The notes under the pieces are model-generated. The model had not been told where the DNA came from, searched no databases, and saw nothing but the letters and a program-made list of their open reading frames with translations. A stretch of 64,000 nt of DNA from an uncultured Ventosimonas sp. (GTDB lineage: Bacteria; Pseudomonadota; Gammaproteobacteria; Pseudomonadales; Pseudomonadaceae), in contig CAMLLC010000010.1 in NCBI GenBank assembly GCA_946480835.1, positions 2,858-66,857 on the forward strand. The letters are read 5' to 3'. Below are positions 1-1,999 of this stretch, one piece after another (positions within the stretch are counted from its first letter, which is position 1; the number at the start of each line of letters is the position of its first letter). The translations under genes were made by a program, and so were the position numbers.

Positions 1-58
1 CAGATACAGTGCTCAGATTTGTCCGTCAACAACTAATGACTAATTAAAAAATGTAGCC

Positions 59-85
59 AAAAAAATACCCAGCAAAAGCTGGGTA
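59..85 (-). terminator. Intrinsic terminator of prrF
   Basis: 8-bp stem (66-73/78-85), 4-nt loop, T7 tail on the minus strand (59-65). Confidence 0.9.
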
Positions 86-175
86 AAAACCGTGATTAGC
101 CTGATGAGGAGACAAACCAAACTACTAAAATGCAGTAGAAAACTTTGACTTGCCAGTTGCTCTTTCAAACAACTT
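59..175 (-). ncRNA. prrF: PrrF-family Fur-repressed iron-sparing small RNA
   Basis: Minus strand of 85-112 reads TCTCCTCATCAGGCTAATCACGGTTTTT, matching the conserved core of Pseudomonas PrrF1 as I recall it. It is followed by an intrinsic terminator (TACCCAGC-TTTT-GCTGGGTA-T7) and preceded by a Fur box inside a sigma70 promoter. The predicted length of about 117 nt fits PrrF. The 5' end is inferred from -10 spacing. Confidence 0.9.
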
Positions 176-181
176 GCGATC

Positions 182-210
182 ATATTAATGATAATAATTA
201 TCATTTGCAA
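182..210 (-). promoter_or_regulatory. sigma70 promoter with overlapping perfect Fur box
   Basis: Minus strand: -35 TTGCAA (205-210), 17-nt spacer, -10 TAATAT (182-187). The perfect 9-1-9 palindrome AATGATAAT-A-ATTATCATT (187-205) contains the 7-1-7 Fur consensus TGATAATnATTATCA. Confidence 0.88.
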
Positions 211-239
211 GCAAAAAATCAATATATATTTTTATCGCT

Positions 240-1778
240 TTACAATAATTCATTAATAAAATCTATTAAAATATTAATGCTTTTCTCGTTATCCGTTGCT
301 ATTGTACAGCTTACCGCTTTCTCTGCTGGGCTAAAGGGTTCTTTACTTGCCAATTGTTGTTTGACTACTTGCCAGGTGGCATCCGACGGGTCAACAGCGG
401 CCAAAGCGCGTTGTTTAAGATGTTGCTCTATAACAGATAAGGGTGCTTCACAGTTTATAATAATAAAAGGCACCCCTTGTTCTTCCGCGAGCTTAAGCGC
501 TCTCATCCTCTCTGCTTGCTTTAAATAGGCTGCATCTAAAACGGTAATGTAACCTGCTTGTAAACTTATCTTGGCTAATTTATAAAGCCTTTGATAAGTC
601 TGTTCAGTTGCTTGGGCACTATAAAGTTGTTCTTTAGCTGTGCTAGCACCCAATAATCTTTTGCGCTCGACATCACTGCGCACCCTAATAGCTGCAAACC
701 GTTCAACTACTTGTAACGCAACATAACTTTTTCCTACCCCAGAAACACCTGAGGTAATCAATAAACAGCGATGAGGAATAAAGGTATAGCTCTCCGCCAA
801 ATTGGCATAATTATAATATTGACTAAGAATAGCTTGCTGCACGCTTTGCTCTGTTACATGAGTTAAACTAAATAACGCTACTTTAGCTCTTACCATTGCC
901 CTGTAAGCCTTATAAAAGCTCATCAATTGCAGTGATTCATAATCCCCTGTCTGTTCAAGATAATTATTAAGTAATCTATTGGCTAGGGCATTAAGTTTTC
1001 TATCTTCAAGATCCATGACTAAAAAGGCAATATCATTAGCCACATCTATTAAACGGAAAGGTTGATTAAATTCTATACAATCAAAAAGCACTACCTTACC
1101 ATCTAGCACAGCTGCATTATTTAAATGAATATCACCATGACATTCTCTTACAAAACCTTCAGTTTTACGTTTAGCTAATAGTGGCTGTAAGCGCTGATAA
1201 GTAGCTTCTGCCCAAGCCTCTAACGCAGCTAATTGGGATAAACCTGCTTCATCTTTAGGTAACATTTCCCTAATTTGCTCAAAATTTTGTCTCACAGGGG
1301 CCATTACTACCTCTGGAGAACCAAAAGGGAGATCGAGGGCTACTTTAGGCGTTAGTTGATGAAAATTGGCAATCTGACTAGCTAACTCATCTATCTGCTC
1401 CGCCTTTAATTCACCTCTTGCCTGCAATTGACTAAGCAATTGATGCTGAGGAAATTGGCGCATTTTTAATACATATTCAATAGGCTCACCCTGTCCGGCT
1501 AATTGTGGTTTGGTAACTGAGTCAGTTATAGGCAATACCTCTAAATAAAGATCGTGGGTCAAGCGTTGATTTAACCGCAACTCTTCTTCACAAAAATGTT
1601 TGCGATCTGCTAACTGAGTGAAATTAAGGAAGCCAAAATCTACTGGCTTTTTAATCTTGTAGGCATAAGGACCTGTTAAAATCACCCACGAAATATGCGT
1701 TTCAATGACTTGAAATTGTTCAACTGGATGATTATAAAGCGCGGGATTTTGTAAAAACTTAATTAATTCTGCACTCAT
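240..1778 (-). CDS. Bifunctional aminoglycoside-phosphotransferase-like / P-loop (AAA_33, gluconokinase-like) kinase, PA4701-type
   Basis: N-terminal ETHISWV and YAYKIKKPV, kinase motifs HGDIHLNN and FDCIEFN, C-terminal Walker A GVSGVGKS and IRVRSDVERKRL. Start moved to the ATG at 1778 (SD AAGGA). Confidence 0.85.
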   Translation of the reverse strand: MSAELIKFLQNPALYNHPVEQFQVIETHISWVILTGPYAYKIKKPVDFGFLNFTQLADRKHFCEEELRLNQRLTHDLYLEVLPITDSVTKPQLAGQGEPIEYVLKMRQFPQHQLLSQLQARGELKAEQIDELASQIANFHQLTPKVALDLPFGSPEVVMAPVRQNFEQIREMLPKDEAGLSQLAALEAWAEATYQRLQPLLAKRKTEGFVRECHGDIHLNNAAVLDGKVVLFDCIEFNQPFRLIDVANDIAFLVMDLEDRKLNALANRLLNNYLEQTGDYESLQLMSFYKAYRAMVRAKVALFSLTHVTEQSVQQAILSQYYNYANLAESYTFIPHRCLLITSGVSGVGKSYVALQVVERFAAIRVRSDVERKRLLGASTAKEQLYSAQATEQTYQRLYKLAKISLQAGYITVLDAAYLKQAERMRALKLAEEQGVPFIIINCEAPLSVIEQHLKQRALAAVDPSDATWQVVKQQLASKEPFSPAEKAVSCTIATDNEKSINILIDFINELL

Positions 1779-1999
1779 GTTTGTTCCTTTATCTATTAGT
1801 CTACTAGTTAACATTATAGGGGGCAAAACAATAATCTACACCTTTAATAGTTATTTTTATTATAAAAACTAACATTATCTTTTTTATTACCAATAGTTAA
1901 CCTCTTGGTGAATTATAAATATTATCTATCTATCTTTATCCACTCTTTACTATAATCTTAGGTTACACTATTGTTATTATTTCATTAGAGATTGTGATT

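Follow-up and report, generated by a model that had tools for sequence, protein, structure and literature searches.

A prrF small RNA gene with a Fur-box promoter in Entomomonas and a predicted target site in the narG leader

The prrF gene and its surroundings

The window, which is the whole stretch of 64,000 nucleotides that was analysed, corresponds to positions 2858-66857 of contig C10 in a genome of 31 contigs with 2,622,861 bp and 35.8% GC. Positions 1-300 were inspected on both strands and contain a prrF gene on the reverse strand. The order of genes at this site is hemF and aroE on the forward strand, prrF and a gene for a protein of 528 amino acids on the reverse strand, and gpmI again on the forward strand. 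The 528 amino acid protein (240-1826, reverse strand) carries an aminoglycoside-phosphotransferase-like (APH) and an AAA_33 kinase domain according to Pfam and is the upstream neighbour and syntenic marker of the prrF locus. At every Entomomonas locus compared, and likewise in several further genera, its homologues adjoin a PrrF copy, and a homologue with 59% identity is located about 1.5 kb from a tandem prrF pair in a relative with a 6.2-Mb genome. A preceding sequence-only reading of this DNA had described the locus as lying beside a PA4701-type gene as in Pseudomonas aeruginosa, and in substance this synteny was borne out, as the APH/AAA_33 gene accompanies prrF across the family. PA4701 is described in the literature as a non-essential protein of unknown function. 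The same reading had assumed an AT-rich, host-associated pseudomonad, which agrees with the GC content and with the source genome being an Entomomonas, an insect-gut genus within the Pseudomonadaceae. Members of this genus are associated with the digestive tracts of insects (PMC9872594).

The Rfam model of PrrF (RF00444) matched positions 215-58 of the window on the reverse strand with 88.1 bits and an E-value of 9.3e-16, covering model positions 1-150 and thereby its full length. This score is 1.9 bits short of the gathering cut-off of the family, which is set at 90 bits by convention of the curators and does not reflect a property of the biology. When the whole window was compared with Rfam at gathering thresholds, no family was listed. 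The Rfam search which had been proposed for this locus therefore returned PrrF at an E-value threshold and nothing at the default cut-off, and taking the empty default result as evidence against a prrF gene would have been a mistake. The next families aligned only partially, with the 3' part of the locus, namely the Betaproteobacteria_toxic_sRNA family (RF02278) with 29.7 bits (cut-off 50) and RyhB (RF00057) with 18.8 bits (cut-off 55). A core of about 27 nucleotides, UCUCCUCAUCAGGCUAAUCACGGUUUU, is the RF00444 consensus without any difference, as had been stated for the seed and 3' core.

The promoter was read from the sequence. The -35 hexamer TTGCAA (205-210, reverse strand) aligns with the promoter part of RF00444 and is identical in a second prrF copy of the genome, and the -10 hexamer TAATAT (182-187, reverse strand), which follows after 17 nucleotides, is conserved in all Entomomonas copies. 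With matches at four of six positions each, eight of twelve together, the hexamers are too weak for a consensus promoter scan. Inside the spacer lies the predicted Fur box TGATAAT-T-ATTATCA (189-203), a perfect 7-1-7 inverted repeat which by our own count agrees with the classical 19-bp consensus in 16 of 19 positions. Perfect boxes of this kind occur five times in the 2.62-Mb genome, compared to 0, 1, 0, and 0 times in four simulated genomes of matched composition, and two of the five are held by prrF promoters. A perfect Fur box upstream of a PrrF small RNA had been claimed, and both parts of this claim were supported, by the predicted box, one of five genome-wide, and by the full-length model match. 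The other three boxes (C3:73720, C4:109085, and C6:108049) are each situated just upstream of a gene and probably represent the core Fur regulon. Genes for Fur itself (151 bits) and for Hfq (102 bits) were found in the genome.

The predicted transcript is about 117 nucleotides long (59-175, reverse strand), with a start placed seven nucleotides after the -10 hexamer and an end in a run of U, and it does not contain an AUG. The start at about 175 and the length of about 115 nucleotides proposed earlier fit the positions of the promoter and terminator elements. In the computed fold (-34.4 kcal/mol, z = -3.85) the RNA is more stable than each of 200 shuffled sequences. Stem-loop 1 (155-174, reverse strand) has eight base pairs, AGUUGUUU-GAAA-GAGCAACU, in the minimum-energy fold and aligns to the first hairpin of RF00444. 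Stem-loop 2 (111-154, reverse strand) folds as a long imperfect hairpin with the tip CUACUG/UAGUAG at 122-138. Both hairpins named in the earlier reading, the one with the GAAA loop at 155-174 and the CUACU/AGUAG hairpin at about 121-138, are formed in the predicted fold at the correct coordinates, the latter being the tip of a longer stem. They are followed by the core with a U-run, UCCUCAUCAGGCUAAUCACGG (86-110, reverse strand), which equals the Rfam consensus and is mostly single-stranded, with 10 of its 25 bases taken by a weak helix of five base pairs. Among 33 sequences of the family the columns of the core UCUCCUCAUCAGGCUAAUCACGG are invariant or nearly so, and this region presumably pairs with target RNAs and binds Hfq. 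An intrinsic terminator (59-85, reverse strand), seen in the terminator scan as well as in the fold, closes the transcript with an eight base pair stem at 85-66, a UUUU loop, and seven U.

A second copy, the distribution of prrF, and the diverged 5' half

Contrary to the single copy that had been assumed, the genome holds a second prrF gene on another contig, unlinked to the one in the window (G000:C3:243485-243637, forward strand, 80.9 bits), and two copies were present in each of the six Entomomonas genomes searched. The two genes of this genome share an identical segment of 29 nucleotides with the promoter and the Fur box, and are 86% identical in the 5' half and 98% identical in the 3' half. 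The second copy sits between the divergently transcribed fumC and trxA. Here the start of fumC, the gene for a class II fumarase, is 222 nucleotides away from the Fur box (L002 1286-1530, G000:C3), and a second strong Fur box was not seen in this intergenic region. As FumC is an iron-free fumarase, the region may let Fur co-regulate both genes.

The arrangement of the copies varies within the genus. In two genomes (G001, L041 8471-9934, and G003, L040) aroE and the APH gene flank both copies, which lie on one strand at a distance of 1.3 kb from each other and enclose a DUF1706 gene. In two others (G002 and G004, L038 and L039) the copies are unlinked, one beside the APH gene and the other between aroE and fumC, a pattern to which two short contigs of G005 also fit. 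The genome analysed here represents a mixed state among these patterns. Such variation would fit rearrangements through recombination of one copy with the other.

The copies of the five other Entomomonas genomes score between 76 and 99 bits with RF00444. Orthologues in congeners exceed the cut-off with 98.7, 93.7, 92.4, and 92.2 bits, and three congeners pass in this way (91-99 bits). When compared by half, the congener orthologues are 81-98% identical to the copy in the window. PrrF was found in all 24 other Pseudomonadaceae genomes searched and, at E-values up to 0.001, in one of 16 other families of the order. A genome from another family of the order (G028, L026 1215-1656), outside the Pseudomonadaceae in the delimitation used here, contains two PrrF-like genes with 84 and 68 bits, arranged in tandem about 130 nucleotides apart, so that close tandem duplication also occurs beyond genomes of the P. 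aeruginosa type. Two further weak matches of the PrrF model in this genome were rejected, one with 24.6 bits downstream of fur, which lacks the PrrF core, and one with 22 bits antisense of the narG leader, which has neither a promoter nor a terminator of its own.

As no copy scores above 90 bits in three of the six Entomomonas genomes, prrF is left unannotated there. All copies of these genomes score 76-88 bits, which means that annotation based on Rfam skips the gene in at least three of the six, a gap which would be cured by seeding the RF00444 alignment with Entomomonas sequences.

A remodelled 5' half had been described for this RNA. This holds for the nucleotide sequence, where identity to other genera of the Pseudomonadaceae is 51-57% in the 5' half as compared to 74-89% in the 3' half (49-65% and 71-89%, respectively, when G028 from another family is also counted). 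It is overstated for the architecture, which is canonical and has been kept by compensatory changes. Each of the two stem-loops has its aligned counterpart in RF00444, and folds calculated for each sequence across the family gave the same four elements each time. Among the 33 family sequences the pairs of stem-loop 1 and those of the terminator covary, with double changes in 11 of their 17 consensus pairs, and one pair of stem-loop 1 is CG in 19, UA in 9, and GC in 3 sequences. At its base, stem-loop 2 has the helix GGCA(A/G)/UUGUC in Entomomonas (GGCAA/UUGUC here) and G(A/G)UAA/UUAUC at the same position in other genera, which reads as a compensatory change from U-A to C-G. The exact sequence of stem-loop 1 was found in none of the species-representative genomes besides this one.

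From these data, window positions 58-215 on the reverse strand very probably carry a prrF gene which has one paralogue in this Entomomonas species. In a reduced genome of a host-associated bacterium the locus might also be imagined as a decaying relic of prrF, unexpressed or non-functional, and the score below the Rfam cut-off, the weak promoter hexamers, and the small genome of 2.62 Mb would suit such a relic. Decay is nevertheless hard to reconcile with an identical promoter and Fur-box segment and an intact core and terminator in both copies, with the retention of two copies in six of six genomes, with stem changes that are compensatory, and with the presence of both fur and hfq, and it is considered very unlikely. 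Even less credence is given to a Fur-repressed small RNA of some other family, RyhB-like or akin to the CU-rich betaproteobacterial "toxic sRNA", which would have only the anti-Shine-Dalgarno motif and the terminator in common with PrrF. The partial matches to RF02278 and RyhB over the 3' part are what such a view could appeal to, but the PrrF match extends over the full length and is about 58 bits stronger, both 5' stem-loops align to the PrrF model too, and a graded series of orthologues at the syntenic site connects the locus to canonical PrrF. The locus is a genuine prrF gene, ordinary as a member of its class, with a diverged 5' half and a conserved structure. It changes nothing in how the PrrF class is understood and indicates that the Fur-PrrF iron-sparing circuit has been kept, in two copies, in a small and AT-rich insect-gut lineage. 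A literature search found no paper which combines PrrF and Entomomonas.

Proposed mechanism and narG as a predicted target

By analogy to the biology of PrrF and RyhB, the gene is expected to be repressed by Fur and its RNA to pair with targets with the assistance of Hfq. In the iron-replete cell Fur loaded with iron would occupy the box in the 17-nucleotide spacer of the sigma-70-type promoter and block RNA polymerase. Under iron scarcity the RNA would be made and bound by Hfq, and its CU-rich core would pair with the ribosome-binding regions of mRNAs encoding iron-rich proteins, thereby blocking their translation and sparing iron.

Candidate targets were sought in a blind scan, by scoring the regions from -60 to +30 of the 2293 called genes against the core. 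With a strict Watson-Crick local score narG ranked first at 16.5, followed by a next best value of 11.5 among the 2293 regions. For 200 dinucleotide-shuffled cores the maximum averaged 11.2 with a highest value of 15.5, and none of them reached 16.5. The site, which is located outside the window, is a stretch of 19 nucleotides (G000:C1:9739-9757, reverse strand; locus L044 3780-3960). It matches 19 of 20 positions of the PrrF core by complementarity, leaving one core base bulged, and extends as UGAUUAGC-UGAUGAGGAGA from -24 to -3 over the Shine-Dalgarno sequence, where it would pair with UCUCCUCAUCA(G)GCUAAUCA of the RNA. The start codon of narG is well fixed by the Nitr_red_alph_N domain, whose match starts at residue 3. 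The nar locus is complete and consists of narXL, narK1, narK2, and narGHJI, followed by molybdate-transporter genes.

The four congeners which possess narG have CCGUGAUUAG-GAGA at the homologous place, corresponding to a 10-nucleotide complement to CUAAUCACGG of the core plus the anti-Shine-Dalgarno match. Compared to them the leader of the genome analysed here has eight extra nucleotides, CUGAUGAG, exactly where CUCAUCAG of the RNA would otherwise loop out. The extended narG site occurs in this genome only. The same is true for a CUGAUGAGGA motif ahead of narK2, which is not conserved in the congeners. In the narG leaders of other genera only short, interrupted complementarity was found, not above chance.

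Ranking by duplex energy (RNAduplex) also placed narG first, with -31.4 kcal/mol, and the top ten included nuoK, a ferritin-family gene, gltD, and narK2. Duplex energy was rejected as target evidence, as two of 12 shuffled RNAs were at or below -31.4 kcal/mol and tenth-best values were similar. Since shuffled RNAs reach the same energies, the iron-related appearance of the top ten with ferritin, gltD, nuoK, and narK2 is without statistical support and no more than suggestive. It is the strict Watson-Crick score alone that sets narG apart. Another sequence resembling the narG site, on contig C19 with two mismatches, was discarded for lying inside a coding region. Classical PrrF targets (sodB, sdh) scored modestly. 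The genome has one Fe/Mn superoxide dismutase gene, with CCUGAUGA and GGAGA at its ribosome-binding site, which ranked 179th of 2293, and sdhC ranked 419th, both not above chance.

As far as can be predicted from complementarity, narG, the gene for the catalytic subunit of respiratory nitrate reductase, is the strongest candidate for a PrrF target in this genome. With the leader complementary to the core at the Shine-Dalgarno sequence, pairing would be predicted to turn off NarGHI, a complex rich in Fe-S clusters and haem, in iron starvation. It is tentatively proposed, at somewhat less than an even chance, that PrrF in Entomomonas came to control respiratory nitrate reductase directly, and that in the species analysed here a lineage-specific insertion of the eight nucleotides CUGAUGAG into the narG leader and a second CUGAUGAGGA motif before narK2 extended an ancestral 10-nucleotide site to a near-perfect duplex of 20 nucleotides across the ribosome-binding site. 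The complementarity may instead be non-regulatory, arising by chance, as a side effect of a strong Shine-Dalgarno sequence, or from a small insertion copied from prrF, and the real targets would then be the classical ones only. This is regarded as a serious possibility, if one somewhat below an even chance. It would agree with the restriction of the extended site to this genome, with a match that is in part the Shine-Dalgarno sequence itself, with the non-significant duplex energy statistic, and with a preprint in which overexpression of prrF1 in Stutzerimonas left nitrite accumulation unchanged. Against chance stands the strict score, which none of the 200 shuffled cores attained, together with the 10-nucleotide complement of the congeners, which differs from the site in this genome but overlaps with it at the homologous position. 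An insertion copied from prrF, for its part, would all the same offer a pairing site to an abundant RNA at the ribosome-binding site.

If direct control of narG by PrrF is true, nitrate respiration in the insect gut would be turned off upon iron starvation. It would be the first direct link between PrrF and nar and an instance of a target site evolving towards a fixed small RNA core; a literature search for PrrF acting on narG found no report. The prediction is concrete and testable, would tie iron limitation to anaerobic nitrate respiration, and would be of moderate interest if confirmed.

Comparison with known iron-responsive small RNAs

With PrrF1 and PrrF2 of Pseudomonas the Entomomonas RNA shares a promoter with a Fur box, the pair of 5' stem-loops, a core of about 27 nucleotides that shows no difference, and the terminator, and likewise two paralogues are present per genome and the same kinase-like gene is found alongside across the family. 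It differs from them in the loop of stem-loop 1, which is GAAA and not GCGA, in the base of stem-loop 2, which is GGCAA/UUGUC and not GAUAA/UUAUC, and in a 5' half diverged to 51-57% identity with other genera of the Pseudomonadaceae, with a score just under the Rfam cut-off. In addition, the -35 and -10 hexamers of Entomomonas prrF are shifted downstream by about six nucleotides with respect to the Fur box when compared to other genera, and as a result the box fills the spacer. As the copies in the genome analysed here are unlinked, a read-through RNA of the PrrH type is not expected.

RyhB of the Enterobacteriaceae is repressed by Fur, depends on Hfq, and represses mRNAs of iron-using proteins. 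It works alike, whereas its match in sequence and structure is not meaningful (18.8 bits versus a cut-off of 55). IsrR, which works without Hfq and in a Gram-positive bacterium, is an unrelated RNA with a functional likeness only. This iron-repressed small RNA of Staphylococcus aureus is reported to have narG among its predicted and tested targets (for example bioRxiv 10.1101/2022.06.26.497478) and provides a precedent for the logic predicted here, in which an iron-repressed small RNA would act on narG.
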